From positions 9,816 to 73,815 of the forward strand of contig NZ_JBJTER010000089.1 in NCBI RefSeq assembly GCF_046093005.1: a DNA stretch of 64,000 nt, given 5' to 3'. Below are positions 13,229-36,393 of the stretch, piece by piece. Positions within the stretch are counted from its first letter, which is position 1. Each line of letters begins with the position of its first letter. Under the pieces are notes generated by a model, which was not told where the DNA came from, searched no databases, and saw nothing but the letters and a program-made list of their open reading frames with translations. Source of the DNA: Aestuariivirga sp. GTDB taxonomy: Bacteria; Pseudomonadota; Alphaproteobacteria; Rhizobiales; Aestuariivirgaceae. The position numbers were made by a program, and so were the translations under genes.

Positions 13229-13846
13229 TCAGAACTCGACCCCCGCCTGCGCCTTGACGCCGTCGCGGAACGGATGCTTCACCTGTTCCATCTCGGTGAC
13301 GAGATCGGCGATCTCGATCAGCTCGTCCTTGGCGTTGCGTCCGGTGACGATCACATGCTTGTCCGCGGGCTTGTCGCGCAACACCTCCAGCACCTCGCCG
13401 AGCGGCAGATAGTCATAGCGCAGCACGATGTTGAGTTCATCGAGCAGCACCATGCGGCAGGCGGGATCGGCGATCATGCGCCTGGCTTCCTCCCAGGCGG
13501 CGCGGGCATGCGCGATGTCGCGTTCACGGTCCTGGGTTTCCCAGGTGAAGCCCTCGCCCATTGCTTTCACCGTTACCAGATCGGGGAACTTCTCCAGCAC
13601 CGTGCGCTCGCCGGTGGCCCAGGCGCCTTTCACGAACTGCACGACACCGCAGCGCATGCCATGGCCGATGGCCCGGAAAATCATGCCGAAGGCGGCGGTG
13701 GATTTCCCCTTGCCCTTGCCGGTGTGAACGATCAGCAGGCCTTTCTCGATGGTCTTGCCGGCCATGATCTTGTCGCGCACGGCCTTCTTCTTCACCATCT
13801 TCTCGTGGTGGCGGGCATTGTCATGGCCCGGCTTTTCCTCGGTCAT
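13229..13846 (-). CDS. cobO: Cob(I)yrinic acid a,c-diamide adenosyltransferase
   Basis: HTGKGKGKSTAAFG, QFVKG, GEGFTWETQ, LDELN, TGRNA, QAGVEF. Confidence 0.96.
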   Translation of the reverse strand: MTEEKPGHDNARHHEKMVKKKAVRDKIMAGKTIEKGLLIVHTGKGKGKSTAAFGMIFRAIGHGMRCGVVQFVKGAWATGERTVLEKFPDLVTVKAMGEGFTWETQDRERDIAHARAAWEEARRMIADPACRMVLLDELNIVLRYDYLPLGEVLEVLRDKPADKHVIVTGRNAKDELIEIADLVTEMEQVKHPFRDGVKAQAGVEF

Positions 13847-16800
13847 TTGGTAAGCTCCTCCAGCACATCATGCGCGGAATTAAGCCGCGGCGTCCATAGC
13901 CCGCGGGCGGCGGCCTCCGCCAGGCGCTGGGCAATCTCCTTGAGCGCCGCCGGATTGTTGTCCGCGATGAAGCGGCGGGTGCCGGCATCGGCGATGAAGG
14001 CGTCATAGGCGAGATCGAAATGATGCGAGCGCACCGCGCCGGTTGTCGCCGCGAAAGCAAACATGTAGTCCACCGTGGCGGCGATCTCGAAGGCCCCCTT
14101 GTAGCCGTGGCGCTTCACGCCATCGATCCATTTGGGATTGACCACGCGGGACCGCATCACCCGGCTCACCTCCTCCTCGAGCGTGCGGATCACCGGGCGC
14201 TCGGGCCGCGAATGATCATTATGGTAGACGCGCGGGCGGGTGCCGGATGCCTGTTCCACCGCCGCCGTCATGCCGCCCTCGAACTGATAGTAGTCATCCG
14301 AATCGAGCAGATCGTGTTCGCGGTTATCCTGGTTGTGGACCACCGCCTCGATCCGCTTGAGGCGCGAGAGGAAGGCGTCTTCGTCGCGCACGCCTTGTGC
14401 GCCCGCGCCATAGGCATAGGCGCCCCAGGTGACATAGGCGGCGGCGAGATCGGCGCGGCTAGTCCATATCTTCTCATCGATCAGCGCCTGCAGGCCAGCT
14501 CCATAGGCGCCCGGTCTGGATCCGAAGATGCGATGGCCGGCCATCCGCCGGGCCTCGGCGTCGCCGATCCCCGCCCTTGCCAGTGCGCGCGCTTCCGCCG
14601 CCATGCGCTGAGCCAGCGGGTTGTCGTCTTCATCCTCCTCGAGCGCTCCCACCGCGCGGATCGCCTTGTCGAGGAGTTCGATCTGGGCGGGGAAGGCGTC
14701 GCGGAAGAAGCCGGAGATGCGCAAGGTCACATCGACGCGCGGCCGCCCCAGCCTGGCGAGCGGCAGGATCTCGAAGCCGGTCACCCGCCAGCTCGCTGTG
14801 TCCCACACCGGTTTGGCGCCGATCAGGGCGAGCGCCTGGGCAATGTCGTCGCCGCCGGTGCGCATGTTGGAGGTGCCCCAGGCGGAAAGCCCCAGCGCCT
14901 TGGGATAGCGCCCGAAATCCTGGAGATGGCGGAGCAGCAGCTCCTCGGCGGATTTGCGCCCGAGCGTCCAGGCGGCGGGCGTGGGCAGGGTGCGGTTGTC
15001 AAGCGAATAGAAGTTCCGCCCGGTCGGCAGCACGTCGAGACGGCCCCGGGTGGGGGCACCCGATGGCCCCGGCCGCACGAAACGCCCCGCAAGACCTCCC
15101 AGAAGTGCGGCGATTTCACATGGTCCCGAAGCGCGCAGCAGCGGCCGCACATGGCTGTCGATGCGGGCGAGCACCCTGGCGGTTGCGTTCATGCCGGGCG
15201 GCAAGGCGAGGCCCTCCAGCAAAGCCGCCGCATAAAGCTCAAGCCGCTCCACGGTATCGCCGTTGCTGCGCCAGGCTTCGGCCGAGATGTCAGCCAGTGC
15301 CAGTGGACGCGGGCCTGCCCAGGCCGCGGCGGGCGCGCAGCTCAGGGGGTCGAAGCCGGTCAATCCGAAATCGATCGTCAGCGCCCGGGTGAGCGATTGA
15401 TCGCCGTCTTCGCCAAGCCCGCGCGGCACGCGGGTGAGCGCCACGAGAAGATCGGTTTCGAGCCGGCCTTGCGGTGCGGCTCCCAGCACGTGAAGCCCAT
15501 CGCGGATTTGTGCTTCCTTGAGATCGCAGAGAAACGCATCAAGCCGCTGCAAATCCTGCTCTTCGTCACCGGTGAACCCAGCGTCCGCATCAAGCCTTGT
15601 TGAAGCGGTGAGCGCCAGGATATCGCGGCGCAGTGCCGCGCGCCGCCGCGGGTCGAGGCCGGACGCGAGGTAGTACTCGTCAACGAGGGCTTCGAGATCC
15701 TTGAGCGGGCCATAGGTCTCGGCGCGCGTGAGCGGCGGCGTCAGATGGCTGATGATCACCGCCGCGGTGCGCCGCTTGGCCTGGGTGCCTTCGCCCGGAT
15801 CATTGATGATGAACGGGTAAAGCTGCGGCACCGGCCCGAGAATGGCTTCCGGCAGGCAGTCCGCCGAAAGCGCGGTCGCCTTGCCCGGCAGCCATTCGAG
15901 ATTGCCATGCTTGCCATTGTGGATCACCGCATGGGCGCCGAACACGTGCCGCACCCAGATGTAGAAGGCGAGATAGCCATGCGGCGGCGGCAGGGCAGGG
16001 TCATGGTAGCTGGATTTGGGATCGATGTTGTAGCCGCGCGCCGGCTGGATCGCCACCGCGGCATTGCCATGGCGGATCACCGGCAGGCGGAAGCCGCCGC
16101 CGGCGAAGAACGGGTCATCAGCGGGATCGCCCCAGCGGCCAGTGATCCGTTCACGGACGGTCTCCGGCAATGCCGCGAAATGCCGGAGGTAATCGGCCAG
16201 CGAAAGCGTTTCTCCATTCACGCAAGCCGTCTTTGGCGCGGCGTTGGTCGGGCCCCGCTGCAGGGCGGCGATCAAGGCGTTGCCGGTCTCGGGGATGTTG
16301 GTGATCGCATAGCCTTCACCGAGCAGGGCGGCGAGGATCGCCACCGTGCTGGCCGGCGTGTCATAGCCCACGCCATTGGCGATGCGGCCATCCTTGTTGG
16401 GATAGTTGGCGAGGATCACCGCCACTTTCCGCCCTTGCGGCGGCGTGCGCCGGAGCCTGATCCAGCTGGCCGCGAGATCGGCCACGAAGGCCACGCGGTC
16501 CTCAACCGGGCGGTAGGTGAGGATCGGGCACTCCGTCCCGGCGTGCCACTGGTCCTCCGCCTTGAAGGAGATGGCGCGTGACAGAATTCTGCCGTCCAGT
16601 TCCGGCAGCACCACATTCATCGCGAGGTCGCGGGCCTCGAGGCCTTGCGGGCTGGCGCGCCACCGGGCTTCGGAGCTTCCCGCCAGCACCACTTGCAGCA
16701 CCGGGCAATCATAGGCCGCCAGCGGATCGTCGGCGCCGCCCGCCGCCACCGCGAAACTGGTGGCATTCAGGATGATGTCCGGCGGCCGCCCGGAAAGCCC

Positions 16801-17511
16801 GCCACCGATTGCCGCAATACTCGCCGCGTCCTTGAGGCTGGCGACATAGAAAGCGCGTGTTGCAATGCCGCGCGCGGCAAGCTCATCGATCAGCGCGTCG
16901 ATGGGGGCTGTCTGGCCGCCGTCGATCGCCGAGCGGTAGAAGATGATCGCCGCCAGCGGCTGGCCCGCCGCGCCGGTTTCGCGGTAGAGCCCGGCGGGGG
17001 CGGGGGGGATGGCGGGTGCCGGCTCTTCACCCCGCTCCGTCAGATGCCTGCAATAGGCAAGAAAGCCATCGGCGTTGGCGGCGCCGCCGGCCACCAGATA
17101 CTGCCGCAGCCGCTCGCAGTGATGGGCGGGCAGGCTTGAGCGGCGCGTGAGGTCCGGGTCCGGCTGGGCATCTCCCGGCAGGACCGCCAGCAGGATTCCC
17201 CTGGTCTCGGCCAGCGCCTCCAGTTGTTCCAGCCCATAGCTCCAGTAGGACGCGCCACCCAGCAGCCGCAGCACGATCAGCCTGGCATGCGCCAGCGTCT
17301 TCCCGGCGTAAACATCGACCGACAGCGGATGCTGCAGCCGCAACAGGCTGGCGAGGCGCAGGGAACAGGGGTTCCGGTCATGGGCGCGGGCGAGGCTTGC
17401 GAGTTCGCTGTCGGCGGCCGACAGCACGATGATATCGGCCGGCCGCTGCGCGAGGTCGACGGCCTCGGCACTGCCGTCGATCACACCGCTGGTTGAGGCG
17501 AGGAGGTGCAT
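13843..17511 (-). CDS. cobN: Cobaltochelatase large subunit
   Basis: MHLLA start, GKHGNLEWLPGK, NDPGEGTQAKRR, PTGRNFY, NPKWIDGVKRHGYKGA. Confidence 0.96.
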   Translation of the reverse strand: MHLLASTSGVIDGSAEAVDLAQRPADIIVLSAADSELASLARAHDRNPCSLRLASLLRLQHPLSVDVYAGKTLAHARLIVLRLLGGASYWSYGLEQLEALAETRGILLAVLPGDAQPDPDLTRRSSLPAHHCERLRQYLVAGGAANADGFLAYCRHLTERGEEPAPAIPPAPAGLYRETGAAGQPLAAIIFYRSAIDGGQTAPIDALIDELAARGIATRAFYVASLKDAASIAAIGGGLSGRPPDIILNATSFAVAAGGADDPLAAYDCPVLQVVLAGSSEARWRASPQGLEARDLAMNVVLPELDGRILSRAISFKAEDQWHAGTECPILTYRPVEDRVAFVADLAASWIRLRRTPPQGRKVAVILANYPNKDGRIANGVGYDTPASTVAILAALLGEGYAITNIPETGNALIAALQRGPTNAAPKTACVNGETLSLADYLRHFAALPETVRERITGRWGDPADDPFFAGGGFRLPVIRHGNAAVAIQPARGYNIDPKSSYHDPALPPPHGYLAFYIWVRHVFGAHAVIHNGKHGNLEWLPGKATALSADCLPEAILGPVPQLYPFIINDPGEGTQAKRRTAAVIISHLTPPLTRAETYGPLKDLEALVDEYYLASGLDPRRRAALRRDILALTASTRLDADAGFTGDEEQDLQRLDAFLCDLKEAQIRDGLHVLGAAPQGRLETDLLVALTRVPRGLGEDGDQSLTRALTIDFGLTGFDPLSCAPAAAWAGPRPLALADISAEAWRSNGDTVERLELYAAALLEGLALPPGMNATARVLARIDSHVRPLLRASGPCEIAALLGGLAGRFVRPGPSGAPTRGRLDVLPTGRNFYSLDNRTLPTPAAWTLGRKSAEELLLRHLQDFGRYPKALGLSAWGTSNMRTGGDDIAQALALIGAKPVWDTASWRVTGFEILPLARLGRPRVDVTLRISGFFRDAFPAQIELLDKAIRAVGALEEDEDDNPLAQRMAAEARALARAGIGDAEARRMAGHRIFGSRPGAYGAGLQALIDEKIWTSRADLAAAYVTWGAYAYGAGAQGVRDEDAFLSRLKRIEAVVHNQDNREHDLLDSDDYYQFEGGMTAAVEQASGTRPRVYHNDHSRPERPVIRTLEEEVSRVMRSRVVNPKWIDGVKRHGYKGAFEIAATVDYMFAFAATTGAVRSHHFDLAYDAFIADAGTRRFIADNNPAALKEIAQRLAEAAARGLWTPRLNSAHDVLEELTK

Positions 17512-18542
17512 CAGCCTCGCAGCAGCTGGGTGATGGCGGCGCGGTCCATGTGCTTCTCGCCGATCACCACGAGGGCCGTGCCGCGCGGCTCGTCCTGGCG
17601 CCATGGCCGGTCGAAATAGCTGTCGAGCCGCGGGCCCACCGCCTGCACCAGCAGCCGCGCCGGCGCGCCCGCGATTTCGGCGAAGCCCTTGAGGCGCAGG
17701 ACGCCGTGGCTGGCGATGGCGTTTCCGATGCGGTTCAGCAGCGCTGCCTTATCGCCTTGCGGGCCGAGCGCCACCACGAAGCTCACGAAATCATCATGGT
17801 CATGCTGTTCCTCGCCTTCCATCTCATGGTGCGAGAGGCGGTTCGCCATATCGTCTTCCGCCGCCGCCCCGGCGCCCAGCAGTGCTGCCACGCTCACCGC
17901 GCCGTGCCGCGCGGCGATCATCCCGGTGCCCGCCCGCAGCTTCTGCTTCAGCGCGGCGGTAACGGCGTCCTGTTCGCCGGCCGCGAGAAGGTCGGTCTTG
18001 TTGACGATCACCAGGTCAGCGCAATTGAGCTGATCCTCGAACAGTTCCTCGATCGGGTTTTCATGGTCGAGCGTCGGGTCGGCCAGGCGCTGTGCCGCCA
18101 GCGCTTCTTCATCATCCGCGAAACGGCCCTCGGCCAGCGCCTTGGCATCGACAACGGTGATCACCCCATCGACGGTGACGCGCGGCTTGATCTCCGGCCA
18201 GTTGAAGGCCCGCACCAGAGGCTGGGGCAGGGCGAGGCCGGAGGTTTCGATCACGATGTGCTGCGGCGGGTCCGGCCGGTCGATCAGCTTCTTCATGGTC
18301 GGAATGAAATCATCGGCCACGGTGCAGCAGATGCAGCCATTGGCGAGTTCGATCACATCCTCCTCGCGGCAGGCTTCGGCGCCGCAGCCCTTCAGGATTT
18401 CGCCATCGACCCCGACATCGCCGAACTCGTTGACGATGAGAGCGATGCGCCGCCCGCCGGCATTGGCCAGCAGGTTGCGGATCAGCGTGGTCTTGCCGGC
18501 GCCGAGGAAGCCGGTGATGACGGTGGCGGGAATCTTCTGCAT
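17511..18542 (-). CDS. cobW: Cobalamin biosynthesis GTPase CobW
   Basis: MQKIPATVITGFLGAGKTT, NGCICCTVADDF, ETSGLALP. Confidence 0.94.
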   Translation of the reverse strand: MQKIPATVITGFLGAGKTTLIRNLLANAGGRRIALIVNEFGDVGVDGEILKGCGAEACREEDVIELANGCICCTVADDFIPTMKKLIDRPDPPQHIVIETSGLALPQPLVRAFNWPEIKPRVTVDGVITVVDAKALAEGRFADDEEALAAQRLADPTLDHENPIEELFEDQLNCADLVIVNKTDLLAAGEQDAVTAALKQKLRAGTGMIAARHGAVSVAALLGAGAAAEDDMANRLSHHEMEGEEQHDHDDFVSFVVALGPQGDKAALLNRIGNAIASHGVLRLKGFAEIAGAPARLLVQAVGPRLDSYFDRPWRQDEPRGTALVVIGEKHMDRAAITQLLRG

Positions 18543-18544
18543 GG

Positions 18545-19237
18545 TCAGCTTTCGTAAATGTCCCTGGCGGTGAGCGTGAGGGCCACGGCGAGGAACTGGC
18601 CGATCAGCAGCCAGAACACCGCATTGGCGGCGATGGTGTTGGCGGCGAAGCGCGCCGCGAGTTCGGCCGGCACCGTGCTTTCGGCATGGATGCCCGATGG
18701 CGCGCCCAGCGCATGCGGAAGGGCGATCAGTGCCAGCGCCAGCGCCACGGCCCAGGCCTGGCGGCGGCTCACGAGCAGAAAGATGCCTGCCGCCGTCAGG
18801 GCCACGGTGCTCACCCACCATAGCTGCTGCAGCCAAAGATCGCCCGCCGCCATGCCAGGAAGCACCGGAGGGAGGCCGGCTGCCGGGGCAATGGTGACGG
18901 CCAGAAATCCGCACAGGCCCCAGACCATGCCGTTCCGCCGGGTGATGGCGATGCCGGACAGCAGCGAAATTCCCGCCAGCACGGCGGCAAAGGCGGCGCC
19001 GGTCATGACGGTGGTGAGGGTGGTTGCGAGGCTTCGCTGCCAGCCATCGGCGGGGCGCCAGCCGTCATGCTCATGCGCCCCGCCGTTGCCATGGTCATGC
19101 GTGGCCACGGATTGCCGCGCCTCGAAGCCTTCGGCTTTAAGGATGAGGGGCGTCAGCCGCACATGCAGGATGGCACCCATGATAAGCCCGGCCGCCATCC
19201 CCGCAAGGAGTGCGGCGAGCACCACGCGCCCGATCAT
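18545..19237 (-). CDS. cbtA: Cobalt transporter subunit CbtA
   Basis: TM helices, His-rich loop (HDHGNGGAHEHD), GLPPVLPG, PHALGAP; lies downstream of cbtB. Confidence 0.85.
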   Translation of the reverse strand: MIGRVVLAALLAGMAAGLIMGAILHVRLTPLILKAEGFEARQSVATHDHGNGGAHEHDGWRPADGWQRSLATTLTTVMTGAAFAAVLAGISLLSGIAITRRNGMVWGLCGFLAVTIAPAAGLPPVLPGMAAGDLWLQQLWWVSTVALTAAGIFLLVSRRQAWAVALALALIALPHALGAPSGIHAESTVPAELAARFAANTIAANAVFWLLIGQFLAVALTLTARDIYES

Positions 19238-22434: not shown

Positions 22435-23022
22435 CTACCAGCGCATCGGACGGAAGGACTTCAGCGTCGGCATGCCGATCATCGAGGACAGGGGCGCGGC
22501 ATTCTTGCTGAGCAGCCCCATGCCGATGAGGGAGGAGAGCGGCGCGGCATTCTCACTCAGCAGCGGCATGCCGATAACCCTGGAGGCGCTCCAATCGGCT
22601 GACGTCAGCGGTGAGAACCCGATGATCTTGGAGATGGGCGTGGCATCATCGGACAGCAAGGGCATCATCAGCGCGCTTGATAGCGGCGCGGCTTCATCCC
22701 ACAGGGTTTCCGGCGCGGGCTCCGGCATGCCGGTTGGGATGGGGTGGTGGGAGTCGAGAATCTGTTCCGCCGCCAGTCCTGTGCCGAAAGGCGCGAACAC
22801 CGTCACCAGCGAACCGCCCGCCGCAACGCCCTTGGCGTAAATACGGGCGTCCGCCAGAAGCACCCGGTTCTGGGCGATCTGCGCGGCAATGGCCGAGAGC
22901 GGCGTATCACCGGCGGGCGGAGACACCACATGAACGTCCGTGAAGCCCTCCTCGCGCAGTTCGGCGGCGGCCTTGTGAGCGGAGTCCTGGCTGGAATACA
23001 TCCGGTTGATTTCAGTGGTCAT
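22435..23022 (-). CDS. Putative LH2-associated PucDE/gamma-like protein with ~16-aa repeats
   Basis: Lies immediately after pucC; C-terminal repeats (A-x-PLS-x2-IGM-x-LLS). Resemblance to R. capsulatus PucDE is from memory only. Confidence 0.5.
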   Translation of the reverse strand: MTTEINRMYSSQDSAHKAAAELREEGFTDVHVVSPPAGDTPLSAIAAQIAQNRVLLADARIYAKGVAAGGSLVTVFAPFGTGLAAEQILDSHHPIPTGMPEPAPETLWDEAAPLSSALMMPLLSDDATPISKIIGFSPLTSADWSASRVIGMPLLSENAAPLSSLIGMGLLSKNAAPLSSMIGMPTLKSFRPMRW

Positions 23023-23056
23023 TGCGGTGTCCTCTCGCTATTGGTTCGGTGTTCGT

Positions 23057-24457
23057 TCATCGGGCGTCTGCGGTGCGGCGGTTTGTGGCGTCCGGGCTGC
23101 GCGCAAGGTGGTAAGCAATTACGATTGTTGCCATTAGCAGGATCACCTCCAGCCCATAGACCGAAAGATAGGGCAACACTGTTCCCCCGCCGCCAATGGC
23201 CGCGACGCTGTCACGGAGGATCGCGCCCAGCGCAATCCCGCATCCCGCGGCGGTGGCCTGCACTGCGCCCCATGCGCCAAGCGCCAGGCCACGCTGGTCT
23301 TCGGGCGCATGGTTCATGGTGGCGGTGAGCGTGCCGTGCCCGAACAGCCCGCCGCCAAAGCCAATGAGCAGCGTGCCGGCGCCGAACAGCAAGGGTGAGG
23401 CCAATGGCGCCGCCGCGATGATCATCAGGAACGCCGGCACCCCAACCATCGCGCCGCATGCGGCCATGCGGAACGCATCGAAGCCGCGGCTCAGCACATA
23501 GGAGGCAAGGCTGAAGCCCAGGAGGCCGCCGCCCGCGAGTGCGGCCGTCAGCACCGTGGTGCGCGACACGGTAAGGCCGAGGACCTGGCCGCCATAGGGC
23601 TCCAGCATCACATCCTGCATGCTGAAGGCGAGTGTGCCGAGGCCTACCGCCACCAGCCGGGCCATCGCCTTGTCGCCGGCGATGAAGCAGGCCCAGGCCT
23701 CCCGGAAACTGGGGTCGGGGGCGGCTCCTGGCCGCCGCCTGGCGCCGCCGCGCGCCTCCTGCTTCCAAACCGCGATACCGGTGAGCAGCAAGGTGGCCAC
23801 GCCCGCGCCCTGGATCACCTGAACCAGCCGCCCATGCGAGAAATTGGCGAGCAAGGCTCCGAAAATCAGTGCACTGATGATTGAGCCCGCCAGCAGAGAG
23901 ACATACATGAGCCCGACCACATTGGGCTGTTTTTCCGGGGGCGTGAGGTCTGTCGCCAGTGCGAGCCCGGCAGTCTGGCTGATGTGCAGTCCGGCTCCAA
24001 CGAGCAGGAAGGCAAGCGCCGCCGCCGCCTGGCCCACCCAGGCGGGAACTTCAGCGGCATGGCCCTGGCGGGCAAGCACCAGCAGCGCGAAAGGCATGAT
24101 GGCGAGGCCGCCGAACTGCAGCATCGCGCCCTTGTAGATGAATGGAACGCGCTTCCAGCCCAGTTCGGACTGGTGGGTGTCGGATTTGAAGCCGATGAGC
24201 GCCCGGAATGGCGCGAAAACCAGTGGCATGGCCAGCATCACGGCCACCAGCGAGGCCGGAACGTGCAGCTCAACGATCATCACCCGGTTCAGCGTGCCCA
24301 CCAGCAGCGCCAGTGTCATTCCGGCGGAGACCTGGAACAGCGAAAGCCGCAGCAGCCGCTCGATCGGCACATCGGCCGTCGCGGCGTCCGCGAAGGGAAG
24401 ATATTTCGCGCCGAGCCCGATCCAGGCCCGCATCACGCTCTGGCTGAGACGGTTCAT
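23057..24457 (-). CDS. pucC: PucC/LhaA-family MFS light-harvesting assembly protein
   Basis: YLPFADAAT, LLRLSLFQVS, GTLNRVMIVEL, LEPYGG, GAWGAVQATAAG; follows pucBA. Confidence 0.9.
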   Translation of the reverse strand: MNRLSQSVMRAWIGLGAKYLPFADAATADVPIERLLRLSLFQVSAGMTLALLVGTLNRVMIVELHVPASLVAVMLAMPLVFAPFRALIGFKSDTHQSELGWKRVPFIYKGAMLQFGGLAIMPFALLVLARQGHAAEVPAWVGQAAAALAFLLVGAGLHISQTAGLALATDLTPPEKQPNVVGLMYVSLLAGSIISALIFGALLANFSHGRLVQVIQGAGVATLLLTGIAVWKQEARGGARRRPGAAPDPSFREAWACFIAGDKAMARLVAVGLGTLAFSMQDVMLEPYGGQVLGLTVSRTTVLTAALAGGGLLGFSLASYVLSRGFDAFRMAACGAMVGVPAFLMIIAAAPLASPLLFGAGTLLIGFGGGLFGHGTLTATMNHAPEDQRGLALGAWGAVQATAAGCGIALGAILRDSVAAIGGGGTVLPYLSVYGLEVILLMATIVIAYHLARSPDATNRRTADAR

Positions 24458-24498
24458 GCCCCGTATCCGGCGGTTAATGCTGCAACCGGTGTCGGAAT

Positions 24499-24607
24499 TT
24501 GCGGGAGGTGCGCGGGGCTTGGGTCCCCGCTCACCTCTCGCAATATCGTAGCCATCCCCCTTGCACTGCCGGCGCCGCTTTCGGGGGAAAGGAGGCGCCG
24601 GCGGTGC
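24499..24607 (-). terminator. Two GC-rich stem-loops between pucA and pucC (mRNA stabiliser/attenuator)
   Basis: TTGCGGGAGGTG...CACCTCTCGCAA (24499-24543) and GCACTGCCGGCGCC...GGCGCCGGCGGTGC (24563-24607). Confidence 0.55.
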
Positions 24608-24624
24608 CGGTCAGGAGGGACCAT

Positions 24625-24927
24625 CTATTTTACGGCGATCGCCGTCTCGTCCTCGAGCGAGGCGAGCTTGGCGGCCGCGTCAGGAGCCACTGTCACGGTG
24701 ATGACATAGCCCTGATCGGTCTTGGTCACGTTCGAGGCCAGCGGCGAAACCGTGGTTTCGGCCGAGGCGGCCTGCGCGGCCGCTCCGCCCTCGAAGAACT
24801 TCGACACCCAGGTGCTGTGCGTCATCACTGACGCATGCACCACCAGCGAGGTGACCGCCACGCCGCCGATGAACAGCGGCAGGCCGACGGTGGGGTTAAC
24901 GACGCACCAGATTCTTCCTTGGTTCAT
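24625..24927 (-). CDS. pucA: LH2 alpha polypeptide with long C-terminal extension (100 aa)
   Basis: [17 protein letters not shown], His31 BChl ligand, TW at 39-40. Confidence 0.93.
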
Positions 24928-24939
24928 GTCATTAACCTC

Positions 24940-25095
24940 CTAGTGCAGCCATGGCGAATAAACATACGCCAGCAGGTGTGCGAAGAGGGCGATCACGAAG
25001 AACACGCGCGAGCCGTCGATGACGTGCTTGTGCAGTTCCTCTGATTCCCGGATGGTAAGGCCAGTCGGCCATACCCGGTTGGGATCGTCTGACAT
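24940..25095 (-). CDS. pucB: LH2 beta polypeptide (51 aa; below the ORF-track cutoff)
   Basis: Manual translation: [51 protein letters not shown]; GGAGG RBS upstream. Confidence 0.94.
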
Positions 25096-25205
25096 CTAGC
25101 TTGTACCTCCAGACTTAGACTAGTTCCGTGCTTGACCCGCACGCAGGTTTCTCGTCATTTCATCAACAACAAGACTAGTTTTGGTGCAGAGCACCTTCCT
25201 TCCCC

Positions 25206-26261
25206 TCACGGGTTGGGAACCGATAATTCCGGATACTCCTTTGCCATGCTGAAGCCGTAGAGCGGCTTGTTCACGCCCTGGTGGCAGGTGGCGCAGTTGA
25301 CCTTGAGAACGTCGCCCATCGGCCCCTTGCGGTTGGCGGGGAACACATCGGTGAGCGAGTCCATGTAGGTCTGGTTGACATTGCCCACCATCTGCAGGCC
25401 GTGCCAGGCGGTGACGCGCTGCGGCCGGCTTTCCTTCCAGCTGCTGAAGATCCGCGAGTTGTGGCAGAAGGTGCAGTTGACGCCCAGCCCCGTGGACATG
25501 TGCATCATCAGCGCATAGGTCTTCTCGGTGCTCTGGATCGAGCCGCCGGTGCCGCCCGGAAGCGCCGTGGAGGCGATGACCCGGATGTTGGCGCCGGGCT
25601 GCAGCAGCGTGGTGAACGGATCATAGGGCAGGGAGGCATAGGCGGGAACCTGCATGCCGGCCACATTCTGGCCGTCGCGGCTCGCCGCCATGCCGCCCGC
25701 CTGTTTCGGCCCGGGGTTGATCGCCCAGACATTCGCGGGCACTGGCTTGCCGCGATGGCAGGTGTAGCAGGTGACGCCCGTCGCCTGCACGTGGGTCTGG
25801 TACTTGCTGTTGATGGTCCTCGTCATCTGCAGCATGCGCCGCGCCACGACCTTGGTGTAGACCTCGTCGGACGCCATGTTCTCGACATTGTGGCAATAGG
25901 CGCAGCCGGCATTGTCGCCTTCCTGCGGGGCGACCCAGGTGGTGATGGCGCCCATCAGCCGGTTGAACTGCGCGGTGTCGAGATCGCCCAGCACCTGCAC
26001 ATTCTTGTAGTTTTCAGGATCGTCCTTCACCAGCACGCCGTCGTTCTCCACGGGGTCGTCGGGCACCGGCGCCTTGTTGAGGGCGGCGAGCATTTCGGCG
26101 CGGCGCGGGTTGGTGATCTGCTCCATGCCGAGGCCGCGATAGCCCAGCTGCTCGGAGTGCATCGGCGGGCGCTCCCATTGCAGCATCATGGGGATGGTGA
26201 GCAGGGTCACCACGACGATGCCGAGCAGGGCTGCTGTAAGGGTTGAGGCGGAGAGTTTCAT
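25206..26261 (-). CDS. pufC: Reaction-centre tetraheme cytochrome c subunit
   Basis: Four CxxCH motifs (CAYCH, CYTCH, CTFCH, CATCH); axial Met/His candidates present; WERPP and GYRG motifs. Confidence 0.96.
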   Translation of the reverse strand: MKLSASTLTAALLGIVVVTLLTIPMMLQWERPPMHSEQLGYRGLGMEQITNPRRAEMLAALNKAPVPDDPVENDGVLVKDDPENYKNVQVLGDLDTAQFNRLMGAITTWVAPQEGDNAGCAYCHNVENMASDEVYTKVVARRMLQMTRTINSKYQTHVQATGVTCYTCHRGKPVPANVWAINPGPKQAGGMAASRDGQNVAGMQVPAYASLPYDPFTTLLQPGANIRVIASTALPGGTGGSIQSTEKTYALMMHMSTGLGVNCTFCHNSRIFSSWKESRPQRVTAWHGLQMVGNVNQTYMDSLTDVFPANRKGPMGDVLKVNCATCHQGVNKPLYGFSMAKEYPELSVPNP

Positions 26262-26274
26262 GTGGTCATCCCTC

Positions 26275-27249
26275 CTATTGCGCCACGCCCGTGGGATCGA
26301 GGACCGGCGCCGTCAGGTCGAGCGGATAGACCGGCGCCACGCCATGCTTCACCGCCCACAGATACCAGTTGTCGACCACCGTGCCGGTGAGCAGGATGCC
26401 GATGCCGCCAACCAGCGGGCACAGCACCGCGAACCACCACGCCCAGCGGTGGATCGACTCCATGGTGGCGTTGAAGCCCATGGTCCAGCGCCAGAACAGG
26501 GCGGCGCGCTCCGAGGCCGTGCCGCGGTCGAGGATCTGTTCGATCTCGCGCTCGCCGCCCAGCCGCGACACCGCGAGGATGGTCGCGCCATGCATGGCGA
26601 ACAGCAGCGCCGAGCCGTACAGGAAGGCGATCGAGAGCATGTGGAAAGGGTTGTAGAAGAGGTTGCCGTAGCGGATCGAAAACGCCGCCGTCCAGTCGAG
26701 GTGCGGGAAGATGCCGAACGGGACCGCTTCCGAGAAGTTGCCGAGCAGCAGCGGCCGGAAGAAGCCCAGCACCAGATAGAGCCAGATGGCCGCCGCGAAG
26801 GCCCAGGCGATATGCGTTCCCATGCCCAGCGCGCGGGCGCGCCGGTAGGTGCGCAGCCACCACAGCAGGATCGATGCGGTGAGGAAGAAGCCGGCCATCT
26901 GCCACCAGCCGCCTTCGCGCAGCGGCGCCAGGCCCAGCCCGTATTTGGCCGGCGGCGGCTCGAGGCCCAGCCAGAACAGCTGGCGCACGAATTCGATTGG
27001 GTTCCAGTTCACCGAGGCCAGCATGTTGAGGCCGATGATCTCGATCGCAATGAAACCGCAGAGCAGCGAGGCGATGCCCAGCGCGCCCAGATACACAGGC
27101 CCGATCTGCGCGTCGCCGAAGGTGCCGAGCAGCCAGTTGGTGGTGGTCATGTTCTCGCGTGACCAGTTTCCTGGCTTCATCGGCACGCCCATGTCGGCGG
27201 GGCCGTGCACCTGCACGCGGGTGAAGATATTCTGATATTCGTACATCAT
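26275..27249 (-). CDS. pufM: Type II reaction centre M subunit
   Basis: [57 protein letters not shown]. Confidence 0.98.
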
Positions 27250-27264
27250 GGGAGTCTCCGCGCG

Positions 27265-28089
27265 TCAGGACCAAATCGGCAGGTCGAGCCACCAGTTCCA
27301 CCATTCGGGCCAGCCACGGGTCCAGAATGGGCCGCTGATCACGATGCAGACGGCGCTGAAGAACACCGCGCCCAGCGCCAGCAACAGGCCCAGGCGGTGA
27401 ATGCCGAGCGTGCCGATCGAATAGCCGATGTGATCACGGAAGAAGGCGTTCTCGTGTTCGGCGGTCTTCACCGCCTCGCCCTTCGGCGGGTTGGTGGCCG
27501 ACAGCACCAGGCCGCCATGCATGGCGAGCGCCAGCGTCGTCGTGAAGAACAGCGTGATGGCGATCATATGCGCCGGATTGTAGTGGAAATGCAGATATTG
27601 GTAGCCCACGTTGGACACCCAATCGAGATGGCTGATGATGCCATAGGGGAAGGCATGACCCCAGGCGCCGAGCAGCACCGGGCGCACGATCTCGAGGGTC
27701 ACATAGGCGAGGATGGCGAAGGAGAAGGCGACCGGCACGTGAAGGCCGATGCCGAGCTTGCGGCAGATTTCCACCTCGCGCAGCGCCCAGCTCACGAAGG
27801 CGCCGGTGGCGCACACGGTGATGATCTGCCAGAGCCCGCCCTCCTTGAGCGGCGCCAGCGCCAGGCCATAGCTCAGGTCGGGCGGCGCGATGTTGATCTG
27901 CCAGAGGTTCCAGGTCGGCCCGATGGCCGCGGAATAGACGATCAGGGCGGTGCCCAGGATCGAGAAGAAGGCGGTGGTGACGCCGAAGAAGCCCACATAG
28001 AAGGGCCCCACCCAGAAATCGAACAGATCGCCGCCGAACAGCGTTCCGCCGCGTACGCGATATTTCTTTTCGAAACTGAGCATTGACAT
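27265..28089 (-). CDS. pufL: Type II reaction centre L subunit
   Basis: [36 protein letters not shown]. Confidence 0.98.
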
Positions 28090-28142
28090 TTCGGTCACTC
28101 CTCCGGCCCTGGAAGCCGGCCTTATTTCTCGAATTTCAGTTC

Positions 28143-28178
28143 GTGGACGGAACGGGGTGGAGGCCGCGTTCCGTCCAC
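28143..28178 (-). terminator. pufA-pufL intercistronic stem-loop
   Basis: Perfect 12-bp stem GTGGACGGAACG/CGTTCCGTCCAC at the position known to stabilise pufBA mRNA in Rhodobacter. Confidence 0.7.
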
Positions 28179-28201
28179 AGGGGGGTGCGGGATGACCGGC
28201 G

Positions 28202-28384
28202 TCAGCCGATCATCTCGCTGACTGTCACATCCAGGCTCGCAGCCTTCTTCACGCCGCCTTCCAGCCAGTTGAACCGGTCGGTGGACAGAAGAATGAAGTG
28301 GATGATGAGTGCCAGCACGAACAGGAAGGTAGCCATCGCCACCAGGGTCCTGCGGGGATCGAAAAGAAGCCACATGCGCCACAT
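28202..28384 (-). CDS. pufA: LH1 alpha polypeptide
   Basis: [28 protein letters not shown]. Confidence 0.97.
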
Positions 28385-28396
28385 GATCGATCCTCC

Positions 28397-28615
28397 TTAT
28401 GTGAACATCGACGTGAGCTGGTGCAGGACCGGCGTCAGGTCGGTGCTCTCATAGCCGTTGGGTCCGGGAATCCACGGGCGCCATTGCCAGGCAAGGAAGT
28501 GGGCGACGATCGCCACCAACGTGAAGGCAATGAAGCTCGAAACGAAGATTCCATGGAACTCCTTGGCTTCGGCTTCGGACAGGCCAGAGATGCCTGACCC
28601 TCTGTTATCGGCCAT
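28397..28615 (-). CDS. pufB: LH1 beta polypeptide
   Basis: [23 protein letters not shown]. Confidence 0.97.
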
Positions 28616-28756
28616 TTTACTGACCTCCGTCTGAGGCCCCGTGAAGGGCCCTGTTACCGCTGAAATCCCGCGCGGACCGGGTGCCTCGGGCCGGTGGAGA
28701 GCCCTTGGCGATCCGCCGTCACCCGCAAGGGTGCCGGCGAATGGCTGGCCCTGCGC

Positions 28757-28972
28757 CTACATGAAGGCGAAGGGGATCGAGTTGTGCGTCGCGGCCTTGG
28801 CGGCGGCGAAGATGGACTTGCCATCCTCATGGCCGGCCATGCGCGGCCGCGCGGCCCGCGGGATCAGCCGCGAGAGCGCGATGGCCACGAAGAACACCGC
28901 GAAGGCCAGCCACATCAGCAGGCTGAACTCGAGCTTCCCCTCGGCGTGGCGTGAGGCGTTGATCATTGACAT
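28757..28972 (-). CDS. pufQ: PufQ-like small membrane protein
   Basis: 71 aa, one TM helix after EF, C-terminal SIFAAAKAA...PFAF; sits between bchZ and pufB. Confidence 0.7.
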   Translation of the reverse strand: MSMINASRHAEGKLEFSLLMWLAFAVFFVAIALSRLIPRAARPRMAGHEDGKSIFAAAKAATHNSIPFAFM

Positions 28973-29024
28973 GCTGTAATCCTCCCGATGTCAGTGACGA
29001 GTGAACTGGAACGGAGCTGGCGCA

Positions 29025-30467
29025 TCAGGCGAGCTCCGCGATGGCTGAAAGCACGTCGGCTTCCGCGACGGTTTCGGATTGCGCCTTGCGGGCGCGGGCC
29101 TCGGCGCCGTCGCGAAGCCGCTTGGCGGCGGATATCCGCACCAGCACCGGCTGGCGTTCCACGAGTTCGTCAAGCGCCGCCTTGGCGGCCGCGTCCCAGA
29201 TCAATTCATGCTCGCGCCGCGCCGGTGTTGCTTCCACCTTGTCCATGTCGGTGGCGAGCGGCAGGATGTTGAACAGCGCGTCGAACAGCGCGTTGCACAC
29301 TTCCTGGATCAGATAGGTGGCGCCGGCATAGCCCATGAACGGCGTGCCGGTATGGCGGCGGATGATGGCGCCGGGGACGGAGGCGGGGAGATAGATGCCG
29401 CGCCCGCCCGCTTCCGTGAGCTACATGCGCTCGTTGTAGCTGCCGAACAGGATGAGCGGCGCCTTCTCGCGAACCAGCTTGCGCACCGCCTCGTTGTCGG
29501 TCTTGGCGCCCGCCTTGCGGGTCACCGCGAACTGGCAGGGCAGGCCCATCTCCTCGCCCAGGAAATGCTCGAGCCCGCGGGCATAGGTTTCGCTCGCCAC
29601 CACGGCGAAGCTGGCGGTGGCGAAGAAATCCTGGGTCACCGAGCGCCACAGGTCCCACAGCGGCTTGATGGTGGTGTGCTTTTCCCGGGCGATGAACGGC
29701 TCGGGATCGAGCCCGAGGGTTTCACCCAGCGCGCGCAGGAACTTGGTGGTCGAGTGCAGCCCGATCGGCGCCTGCAGATAGGGCCGGTCGAGGGTCTCGC
29801 ACAGCTTGCGGCCATATTCGCGGTACATGCACACATTGGCTTCCGCATTGGCGAGCTTCGGCACATCCGCGAGGTGCGATCCCAGCGGGAAGCACATGTT
29901 GACCTCAGCGCCGATGCCTTCGACCAGGCGGCGGATCTCCGCCAGGTCAGACCAGGTGTTGAAGGTGCCGTAGATGGGGCCGATGATATTGACGCGCGGC
30001 TTGTCGCCGGGCGCCCGCGGCTTGGCGGTCGGAACCTGCTTCTTCTTGGTTCCGAATTCCGTCCACAGCCAGTTCATGGCGCGGTCAGCGCTCTGCCACT
30101 GGTCTTCGTCGATGGTGCGCGGCAGGAAGCGCTGGATGCCGGTGCCCTGCGGCGTCACCCCGCCGCCGATCATCTCGGCGATCGAGCCGGTCACCACCAC
30201 GCTCGGCATGGCCGGATCGAGGGTCTTGTGGGCGCGGCGCATGGCGCCTTCGGTGCCGTGCTGGCCGAGTTCCTCCTCGGAAAGCCCGGTCACCACGATC
30301 GGCAGCTCATGCGGCGGCAGCGCGTCGGTGTAATGCAGCACCGATGTCACGGGAAGATTTTCGCAGCCCACCGGCCCGTCGATGATCACCTGCAATCCCT
30401 TGATCGCGGTGAACACATAGACAGCGCCCCAATAGCCGCCGGCGCGGTCGTGATCTAGCACCAGCAT
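29025..30467 (-). pseudogene. bchZ: Chlorophyllide a reductase subunit Z interrupted by an in-frame TAG at 29421-29423 (real lesion or sequencing error)
   Basis: [14 protein letters not shown]...[43 protein letters not shown]... The two ORF-track fragments are in one frame, 87 nt apart. Confidence 0.92.
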
Positions 30468-30528
30468 GGCCGCACCTCCGGGTGTTGCGGCCGCGCCGCG
30501 GCAGGGGTGGCTGTGATCAGAACACGGA

Positions 30529-32061
30529 TCATGTTCCCACCGCCTCTTCGGCCTTGGCGCGCGCCGCCAGCATGCCGGCATATTTCTTGCGGAACTCGGG
30601 GCGGTCGACCGGCGTATCTTCCCAGATGCCCGCCGCATGGCCTTCGCCCACGCCGGCGAAGAATTCGGTCATCGTATCGAAGCGGTGCTTGTTGGCCAAC
30701 GCCGCGTTGATCACCTGGGCGAGCGATCCGGCCCCCGCCGGGCCCATCAGCGGCCGCGCCGAGATCAGATTGGTGAAATAGAGCGACGGGATCGAAAGCT
30801 GCTTGGCTTTCTGCACCACCGGCGTGGTGCCGATCGCCAGATCGGGCCTTGCGTCAATCATCGCCGCGATGTCGTTCTCGAGCGAGGCGCGGAACTGCAC
30901 GGTGACGCCGCGCGCCTCCAGCCAGGCACGGTCGGCATCCGACCAGCGGGTGCGCGGGCAGGCGCTGCCGACATAGGGAACCTCAGCGCCGCTTTCGATC
31001 AGCAGCCGCGCCACCAGAAGCTCCGAGCCCTCGTAGCCAGAAACCGTGATGCGGCCCTTGATCGGCTTTGCCGCAAGAGCGCCCCTGATGGCGGGCAGGA
31101 TCGCATTCTGTGCCGCGGCGATCTTCTCGGCGCCGACATTGCAGGCCTGGCCGATGGCGGCGAGCCAGTCGGCCGTGCCGTCATGGCCCACCGGGGCGGA
31201 ACCAACGACGCTGCGTCCCGCCGCCTCGAATTCGCGCACCGCGGATGTGTAGAAGGGATGGATCGCCGCCACCGCGGCGCAATCGAAGGCGGCGAACAGC
31301 TCGCGCCATTCCCGCGTCGGCACCACCGGCCCGGCGGCAAGCCCCATCGGCTCCAGCATGCGGCCGATGCCGACCGGATCGGCGGGGACCATTTCGCCCA
31401 GCAGCGTGACCGCGGGACGCGCGCTGCGCGAGGTGCGCGGCGCGGCCACCGGACCCTGGCGGATTTCGGAGGCGGCATATTTCAGCATCGCGCCGGCGAG
31501 CACGTCCTTCGCTTCGGCATGGGTCGGCACGCCAAAGCCCGGCACGTCGATGCCGATGATGCGAACCCCGTTGATCTCCTTGGGCAGAAGTTGCAGCGGC
31601 ACGCCAGAGGCCGTCGGCACGCACAGATTGGTAATGACGATCGCGTCATAATCCTCGGGCTTCGCCAGCTTGTAGACGGCCTCGCGGATGTCCTCGAACA
31701 GCTTGCCGGTCACCAGCGTCTCGGAATTGAACGGCACATAGCCGACCGAGCGCCGCGCGCCGTAGAAGTGCGAGGTGAAGGTGAGGCCGTAGACGCAGCA
31801 GGCCGAGCCGGAAAGGATCGTCGCGGTGCGGCGCATGCGCAGTCCCACCCGCAGCGAGCCGAAGGCCGGGCACATGCTTTGCGGCTGGTCATGCGGGCCC
31901 AGCGGATAGTCCCTGGCGTATTGTTCCAGCGCTTCGGACTTGCCGGCGGCGCGCGCCGCCTTGTTGAGTTCATCCTTGCCCGCATGGCAGGACAGACCGG
32001 AGACATCCGCCTTTGGCGCCTCCGTCACGGGCCCGTTCCTGTCGATGAGGGTGGTGGCCAT
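30529..32061 (-). CDS. bchY: Chlorophyllide a reductase subunit Y
   Basis: [28 protein letters not shown] Fe-S ligands. Confidence 0.96.
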
Positions 32062-34057: not shown

Positions 34058-34101
34058 TGTAAGCTTACTCTTACACATCAAAGTGTCAATAGGAGTGTAC
34101 A
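34058..34101. promoter_or_regulatory. Tandem PpsR/CrtJ palindromes at the bchC promoter
   Basis: TGTAAGCTTACTCTTACA (34058-75) and TGTCAATAGGAGTGTACA (34084-101); both are TGT-N12-ACA and 8 bp apart. Confidence 0.9.
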
Positions 34102-36314: not shown

Positions 36315-36357
36315 TGTCAACTCATAATGTCATTGCGACTGTCAGGAATTATTGACA
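36315..36357. promoter_or_regulatory. PpsR palindromes at the crtE/crtD divergent promoter
   Basis: TGTCAGGAATTATTGACA (36340-57, perfect) and TGTCAACTCATAATGTCA (36315-32, one mismatch). Confidence 0.8.
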
Positions 36358-36393
36358 TACTTGTCCAAACTCCGCAACAGGGAACCGAAATCG

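Follow-up and report, generated by a model that had tools for sequence, protein, structure and literature searches.

The window, by which we mean the whole 64-kb stretch of Aestuariivirga DNA analyzed here, carries on its minus strand the core RC-LH1 operon pufBALMC (25206-28615) directly upstream of pucBA, with pucC directly downstream of pucBA and followed by an unannotated gene, orf195 (Table 1). The window shares the gene order pufM-pufC-pucB-pucA-pucC-orf195 with three Aestuariivirga species genomes and with the type strain A. litoralis (GCA_003234965.1), and its puf-puc order is also found in the Aestuariivirga loci L005-L007 and L064. PufM is 91-92% identical to that of the three species genomes, and PucC shows 79-82% identity to its Aestuariivirga orthologues in the same position. 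A tblastn search of the 64 kb with all four LH polypeptides picked up a single pair each of LH2 and LH1 genes and no further LH gene. The window contains only half a photosynthesis gene cluster (13229-18914 and 22400-47317), comprising bchIDO, crtI, crtD, crtE, a crtF-like methyltransferase gene, bchCXYZ, puf and puc, which is flanked by the cobalamin genes cobO, cobN and cobW; bchFNBHLM, puhA, acsF and ppsR do not occur in the window.

Table 1. Features of the puf-puc region and the evidence by which they were assigned.
Feature	Coordinates	Strand	Basis
pufB	28397-28615	minus	
pufA	28202-28384	minus	
pufL	27265-28098	minus	
pufM	26275-27249	minus	
pufC	25206-26261	minus	
Conserved non-coding 48-nt block, pufC-pucB spacer (TCTTGTTGTTGATGAAATGACGAGAAACCTGCGTGCGGGTC..GCACG)	25127-25174	minus	multi-genome alignment
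pucB, LH2 beta, 51 aa	24940-25095	minus	Pfam LHC, E 2.4e-9
pucA, LH2 alpha, 100 aa	24625-24927	minus	PF00556 match, gapless PDB alignment
PucA codons 44/45, TTC TTC (Phe Phe)	24796-24798 / 24793-24795	minus	direct reading
PucA C-terminal extension, residues 49-100	24628-24783	minus	homologue alignment
Two very stable stem-loops right after the pucA stop	24480-24627	minus	MFE -79.3 kcal/mol, z = -5.15, 0/200 shuffles as stable
pucC, PucC/LhaA MFS family LH2 assembly factor	23057-24457	minus	Pfam PUCC, E 5.4e-145
orf195, 195 aa, unannotated, follows pucC	22435-23022	minus	conserved in puc loci

The ATG of pucA is preceded, 8 nt upstream, by a GGAGG ribosome-binding site, and its product matches the Pfam LHC family (PF00556) with an E value of 7.6e-10. 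In phmmer comparisons with PDB chains, PucA aligned residue 1 on residue 1 and without gaps over 48-61 residues. The top match was 7ZE3_A (Rps. palustris PucA-d, TWVAKFMNG; E 1.9e-18), and further matches were 8Z81_a (Hlr. halophila LH2 alpha, SWYPAFFEG; E 1.9e-17), 1IJD_A (Rbl. acidophilus 7050 B800-820, TWYAAFLQG), 9DWZ_A (B800/820) and 7ZCU_A (Rps. palustris PucA-a, TWFSKYWNG); 1KZU_A (Rbl. acidophilus 10050) and 7PBW_AA (Rba. sphaeroides) aligned to residues 1-50. Since the alignment is gapless, PucA positions 44 and 45 are in register with Tyr44/Trp45 of Rbl. acidophilus and Tyr44/Tyr45 of Rba. sphaeroides, and this rules out an alignment that would place Tyr or Trp in the donor sites. 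These two alpha positions hold the H-bond donors to the B850 C3-acetyls in B800-850 complexes (PMC9618040).

Counted from Met1 by direct reading, the key residues of PucA are Ser27, His31, Trp40, Val41, Phe44 and Phe45. As position 41 is Val, Tyr41, the third known donor, present in the B800-820/835 complexes, is absent too, and PucA therefore lacks all three known alpha-chain acetyl donors, with Phe, Phe and Val in place of Tyr44, Trp/Tyr45 and Tyr41. The original prediction, made for positions 24790-24927, had read His31, Trp40, Phe44 and Phe45 in an LH2 alpha that has lost both B850 donors; translation of the ORF at 24625-24927 gives these same residues, and the alignment to characterised alphas that it had proposed puts Phe at both 44 and 45. 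It had also given F44/M45 in a TWV-x-KF context for PucA-d, which is what 7ZE3_A reads. Its span takes in only codons 1-46 of a gene that has 100 codons and ends at 24625.

The beta polypeptide is similarly well placed, its top PDB match being 7ZE3_B (PucB-d; E 7.7e-27), gapless over residues 1-51. This alignment upheld the earlier claim that Arg30 and His40 are retained: PucB keeps His22, Arg30 (the B800 H-bond) and His40 (the B850 ligand), and both coupled-ring ligands, PucA His31 and PucB His40, are in register with the solved structures. The expected B800-site residues are also in place, with PucA starting MNQGRIW (Met1) and with PucB having both His22, whose counterpart H-bonds the carboxy-Met1, and Arg30, ten residues ahead of the His ligand. 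We propose that pucBA (24625-25095) encodes the alpha and beta chains of a peripheral LH2 antenna of the nonamer type, belonging to an uncultured freshwater Aestuariivirga from a lineage of aerobic anoxygenic phototrophs. In this antenna, a standard-looking B800 site (alpha Met1, beta His22, beta Arg30) would accompany a coupled ring whose ligands are alpha His31 and beta His40.

Compared with the residue patterns that define the known antenna types, PucA does not have the Tyr44 plus Trp/Tyr45 of canonical B800-850 alphas. It carries the Phe44/Phe45 seen in one-H-bond complexes of the Rbl. acidophilus 7050/Hlr. halophila type, with Val and not Tyr at position 41, and it agrees with the LH3 pattern of the Rhodopseudomonas scheme (F44 plus M45 or F45). 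From the M26, F44 and M45 of the LH4/PucD alpha it retains only F44, having T26 and F45; it does share with LH4/PucD the presence of zero donors to the B850 acetyls (V41, F44, F45, and a beta C-terminus as in PucB-d). Among PDB chains, both alpha and beta are closest to this B800-only PucD-LH2 (7ZE3).

In the nine LH2 structures tabulated by Qian et al. (PMC9618040), two H-bonds to the C3-acetyls (from alpha Trp/Tyr45 and from Tyr44 of alpha+1) are associated with absorption at ~850 nm, a single H-bond, such as that of Tyr41 in Rbl. acidophilus 7050, with ~825 nm, and no acetyl H-bond with the single 803-nm band of PucD-LH2. The Rba. sphaeroides LH2 alpha double mutant Y44F/Y45L, which like PucA has lost both donors and kept Ser27, the C13-1 keto H-bond donor in that species, has its band at 826 nm (77 K; PMC9618040); it differs from the window's LH2 in being engineered and in having no C-terminal extension. 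In the Rhodopseudomonas scheme, F44 with M45 or F45 denotes an 800/820-nm LH3, and LH4 requires M26 (PMC5069747 Table 2).

Given that Tyr44, Trp/Tyr45 and Tyr41 are all missing, the C3-acetyls of the bacteriochlorophylls should be free, which would raise the site energies and place the "850" band at ~800-826 nm. The resulting spectrum would be either of the B800-820 kind (LH3-like) or a single merged band at ~803-810 nm (PucD/LH4-like), and sequence alone gives no basis for choosing between the two; the retained Ser27 may keep the band closer to 820 nm. Thr26-Ser27 in place of the Met26-Val27 of PucD, the 826-nm mutant and the LH3/LH4 scheme speak against a full shift to 803 nm, and our estimate is therefore 800-826 nm. 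We thus consider it probable, as a complete explanation, that the Val41/Phe44/Phe45 LH2 of Aestuariivirga has a blue-shifted coupled ring absorbing at ~800-826 nm. The blue shift itself is very likely on this evidence; its exact wavelength, the assembly into nonamers and a role in energy transfer are inferred. The original prediction had placed the band at ~820-830 nm, and donor loss together with the H-bond rule supports its direction, but the shift expected here is at least as large and possibly extends to ~800-810 nm. That losing the alpha 44/45 donors yields a blue-shifted LH2 is already textbook knowledge, and F44/F45 is an existing LH3 signature (PMC5069747); the prediction extends a known tuning pattern to a new lineage and involves no new mechanism.

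Several antennas share parts of this pattern. The Rps. palustris PucD-LH2/LH4 (7ZE3) has in common with the window the TWV-x-KF context, Val41, Phe44, a non-donor at 45 and beta Ser29. Its alpha differs in having Met45, Met26 and Val27 where PucA has Phe45, Thr26 and Ser27, and in its length of 59 aa as against 100 aa for an alpha located in the puf operon; moreover, PucD is low-light induced, is one of five pucBA pairs and is associated with a Rhodopseudomonas-specific gamma subunit (PMC9618040). The Hlr. halophila LH2 alpha (8Z81) shares F44, F45, E46, G47 and a longer C-terminus (71 aa), but has Tyr41, which H-bonds the alpha-bound pigment in a complex absorbing at 835 nm (Tani et al., PMC11802735), and it comes from the LH1-LH2 co-complex of a halophilic purple sulfur bacterium. 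The B800-820 LH3 of Rbl. acidophilus 7050 (1IJD) resembles the window's LH2 in Phe44, a non-donor Leu45 and nonamer-type N-termini; it differs in that Tyr41 gives one H-bond (824 nm) and that it is low-light induced beside a B800-850 set. Constitutive LH3- or LH4-like sole antennas are found in the aerobic phototrophs Roseobacter denitrificans (F44/L45), Pseudohaliea rubra (804/821) and Limnohabitans (799/813) (PMC12654162), which have the same lifestyle as the window's lineage but belong to other lineages and have a different residue 45, none being reported from Aestuariivirga. For PDB entry 9LT4 (B800/814), we found no associated paper.

Exciton coupling and ring size, besides H-bonds, also tune the Qy transition, and the C-terminal extension of PucA (including Tyr74) and orf195 could in principle touch the pigments. 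A complex that still absorbs at ~840-850 nm, either because some other residue supplies the H-bonds or because stronger exciton coupling compensates, nevertheless appears to us highly improbable. Candidate donors for it are beta Tyr44, Tyr46 and Trp49, alpha Ser42 and Tyr74 of the extension, which is conserved and absent from the solved structures. There is a precedent in Phs. molischianum and Mch. purpuratum, where the beta-B850 acetyl receives an H-bond from a Trp of the beta chain (PMC9618040), and the beta C-terminus of the window does have Tyr and Trp nearby. The same C-terminus, AYVYSPWLH, however, occurs in PucB-d of the 803-nm complex and makes no H-bond there. Additionally, relatives with YW or FW at alpha 44/45 have Ser42, Tyr74 and these beta residues as well, which indicates that they are not compensatory changes.

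Residues 44 and 45 vary among relatives of the window PucA. A total of 537 alpha homologues were recovered, and the 44/45 state was tallied in the best-scoring 120, which comprise Aestuariivirga-type alphas and related extension-bearing alphas. This set held FF (46 sequences), YW (44), FW (23), FL (4) and single cases of FM, YF and VL; Tyr41 occurred in no member, position 41 being M, V, F or, once, L, and Ser27 was kept in 115 of 117 aligned homologues. On a neighbor-joining tree built with residues 41-46 masked, the state changed at least 30 times, compared with 56 changes for shuffled labels, so that it is clustered and yet has switched repeatedly; as the tree was built on ~90 residues, this count is rough. 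Lys43 and Glu46 went preferentially with FF: Lys43 accompanied FF in 26 of 47 sequences and FW in 0 of 22, and Glu46 was present in 43/47 FF alphas vs 15/41 YW alphas.

Variation at 44/45 is found between close relatives. The cultured type strain A. litoralis has YW, and the beta of an Aestuariivirga genome with YW (locus L006) shows two differences from the window PucB. Bradyrhizobium offers a natural pair, B. denitrificans with FF and strain HKCCYLS20291 with YW, whose betas are identical. As beta is almost the same in FF relatives as in YW relatives, the part that varies is alpha 44/45. The lineage of the window itself is uniformly FF (eight homologues with 91-99% identity), and no variant at 24793-24798 was found in four freshwater metagenomes. 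The named sequences among the closest of the 537 alpha homologues are Aestuariivirga sp. MAGs, and the best alpha match to a GTDB representative, among the matches listed, is 72%. The window's own PucA was found on four short metagenome contigs, with the same neighbors on all, and the window sequence was present in freshwater and lake metagenomes (Logan runs). The run lists of the FF window and of its FW (L005) and YW (L007) relatives had no common run among the top 20-24.

The pucBA genes are transcribed in lakes. Two metatranscriptome runs yielded contigs over pucBA, one (X15) spanning 24701-25183 with 0 mismatches and a depth of 17, which covers the Phe44/Phe45 codons, and the other (X21) spanning 24701-25203. 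Judged by contig depth, which is a crude measure of expression, RNA was most abundant for pufBA (33-38), followed by pucBA (9-19), and was low for pufC (~2) and pucC (~0-3), a pattern in line with the excess of antenna mRNA segments that is usually seen. The stem-loops after the pucA stop codon probably act as a stabilizer of the mRNA 3' end or as a partial terminator before pucC.

Upstream of pucB, the 48-nt block is conserved in the window, in four Aestuariivirga genomes and in one metagenome contig of the same lineage, in a spacer whose upstream part is variable. The block contains the near-palindrome ACCTGCGTGCGGGT, lies inside the RNA contigs ending at 25183 and 25203, and is a possible promoter/operator or 5'-UTR element of pucBA. 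The RNA fold of the pufC-pucB spacer was no more stable than those of shuffled sequences (z = -1.18), scans for sigma-70 promoters and terminators over 22900-29100 gave nothing above chance, and there are no TGT-N12-ACA (PpsR/CrtJ) sites near pufB or pucB. Elsewhere in the window this motif occurs 11 times in all vs 4.3 expected, with tandem sites at 34058/34084 (34058-34101), upstream of bchC, and at 36340/36362 (36340-36379), in the crtE/crtD divergent region. The conserved block and the excess of pucBA RNA over pufC RNA raise the possibility that pucBA is under separate regulation; the pair belongs physically to the puf operon and probably has a control element of its own. On these same grounds, the original prediction's description of the antenna as constitutively blue-shifted is not established. 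Its statement that this is the only LH2 agrees with the tblastn result for the window, and need not extend to the genome.

These data also bear on whether the FF pair could be one of several pucBA sets, regulated by light or redox and possibly assembled into mixed rings, instead of a constitutive sole antenna. We regard this as unlikely, if by no means far-fetched. There are models for it in the LH3/LH4 of Rhodopseudomonas and in Bradyrhizobium BTAi1, which makes LH2 from the pucBA pair of ABQ35200.1 under the control of a neighboring bacteriophytochrome (PMC3899966). Moreover, the photosynthesis gene cluster is incomplete in the window (bchIDO-crt-bchCXYZ-puf-puc), and the 48-nt element and a contig depth of pucBA RNA ~8-fold over that of pufC would fit separate control. 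On the other hand, three Aestuariivirga species genomes, one of them a complete 4.4-Mb chromosome, each have a single pucA locus, after pufC, among the matches listed, which argues weakly against additional sets. No bacteriophytochrome gene (bphP) was found in the 64-kb window, and there is no TGT-N12-ACA site near pucBA. In aerobic phototrophs, the usual case is constitutive expression of one peripheral antenna (PMC12654162).

A further comparison concerns the function of the complex. ABQ35200.1, which we take to be the PucA of Bradyrhizobium sp. BTAi1 (B. denitrificans), resembles the window PucA in its TWMGAFFEGG motif (F44/F45 followed by E46-G47-G48), in Thr26-Ser27 and in a long C-terminal extension with GYVI(S/T), and pucC and an orf195 homologue lie downstream, as in the window. 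It differs in its length (127 aa), is 54% identical overall to the window PucA, and its pucBA genes are located away from pufC. In work of Jaubert and colleagues from 2008, the FF-type complex of BTAi1 reportedly showed a single 803-nm band and poor energy transfer. By analogy, the complex of the window might be made and yet be a poor antenna, serving mainly as an energy sink or as a photoprotective pigment store, as proposed for BTAi1, whose PucA is in the same extension-bearing family. We find this improbable. The family is abundant and under purifying selection, and it switches among FF, FW and YW, which would matter only if the absorbed energy is used. Besides, transfer from 800-825 nm to LH1 is downhill and thermodynamically favorable, and the gene is highly transcribed beside pufBA in lakes.

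PucA also stands out by its C-terminal extension. This contains the motif P62-x-A64-x-N66-x-x-K69-x-x-x-G73-Y74-V75-I76, the residues of which are kept in 104-115 of 117 homologues; P62, A64, K69, G73, Y74, V75 and I76 are near-invariant (at least 90%) in the alpha alignment. None of the solved LH2 chains in the PDB aligns beyond PucA residue 64 in phmmer searches. An AF2 monomer model of the 100-aa alpha, built on an alignment of 58 sequences, was confident only for a helix at residues 15-37. Its pLDDT was under 50 for residues 59-76 and 80-100, which make up most of the extension, so that the model is uninformative there. Alphas of Bradyrhizobium, Acetobacteraceae, Rhodoferax, other Betaproteobacteria and Caulobacterales MAGs carry similar extensions, whereas the Ala/Pro-rich extensions described for Rubrivivax and for Rps. 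palustris PucA-b/c (PMC5069747) look unlike that of the window PucA.

The second conserved part of the locus is orf195. Homologues were present in 51 of 56 puc loci of other genomes, from Alpha-, Beta- and Gammaproteobacteria, the other five being truncated contigs, and their database names were all "hypothetical protein". The product has a ferredoxin-like domain at its N terminus and, at its C terminus, five repeats of ~15 aa (PLSSxIGxPLL); AF2 gave a pLDDT of 82-92 for residues 1-100, the repeats being disordered. It had no match in Pfam, NCBIfam or PDB sequences, and a fold search returned generic ferredoxin-like folds only, none at E <= 0.001. Homology to the gamma subunit was rejected: there is no match to an LH2 chain in PDB sequences, and the gamma repeat EYKGHSGHPLIKQEG is unlike PLSSxIGxPLL. 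An analogous role to that of the gamma subunit is speculation, and we consider orf195 a candidate for an undescribed LH2-associated factor.

Aestuariivirga is a core, year-round genus of freshwater aerobic anoxygenic phototrophs (PMC10976687). We found no literature linking it with light-harvesting, and its antenna is previously undescribed. If the prediction is true, the lineage of the window harvests light at 800-825 nm and not at 850 nm, which affects the reading of infrared fluorescence and absorption surveys of lakes. A broader scenario, which we offer tentatively as possible though not probable, is that closely related, abundant freshwater Aestuariivirga lineages share the same puf-puc operon and a near-invariant beta, and that their YW, FW and FF alphas would set absorption classes of ~850, 835-840 and 800-825 nm, respectively. 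This would amount to spectral niche partitioning similar to that of picocyanobacterial pigment types, built on an LH2 with two undescribed conserved parts, the 50-residue periplasmic C-terminal domain of alpha and orf195. The FF/FW/YW natural allelic series, in a near-constant background and with a cultured YW type strain in A. litoralis, allows the H-bond tuning rule to be tested cleanly in a native host. What is added here is modest, and consists of this series in an ecologically important genus and of two conserved components of the puc locus that had not been described.

Three minor observations concern other parts of the sequence. The LH1 beta (28397-28615, minus strand) has 72 aa, ~22 residues of which lie past the WRPW motif, and is longer than most LH1 betas. 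Over window positions 24400-26400, ENA contig k141_1936718 is 100% identical in PucA, 96% in PucB and only 82% in PufC, which reflects either recombination around pucA or a chimeric metagenome assembly. Lastly, bchZ (29025-30638, minus strand) contains an in-frame TAG at 29421-29423 (...GSYNERM*LTEAGG...) that splits the match to the BchZ profile into 1-344 and 374-466. The site reads TAT (Tyr) in metagenome contigs of a slightly different strain, and the base of the window was found in no public contig; the stop is probably due to an error in assembly or sequencing, or else to a nonsense mutation specific to this strain.
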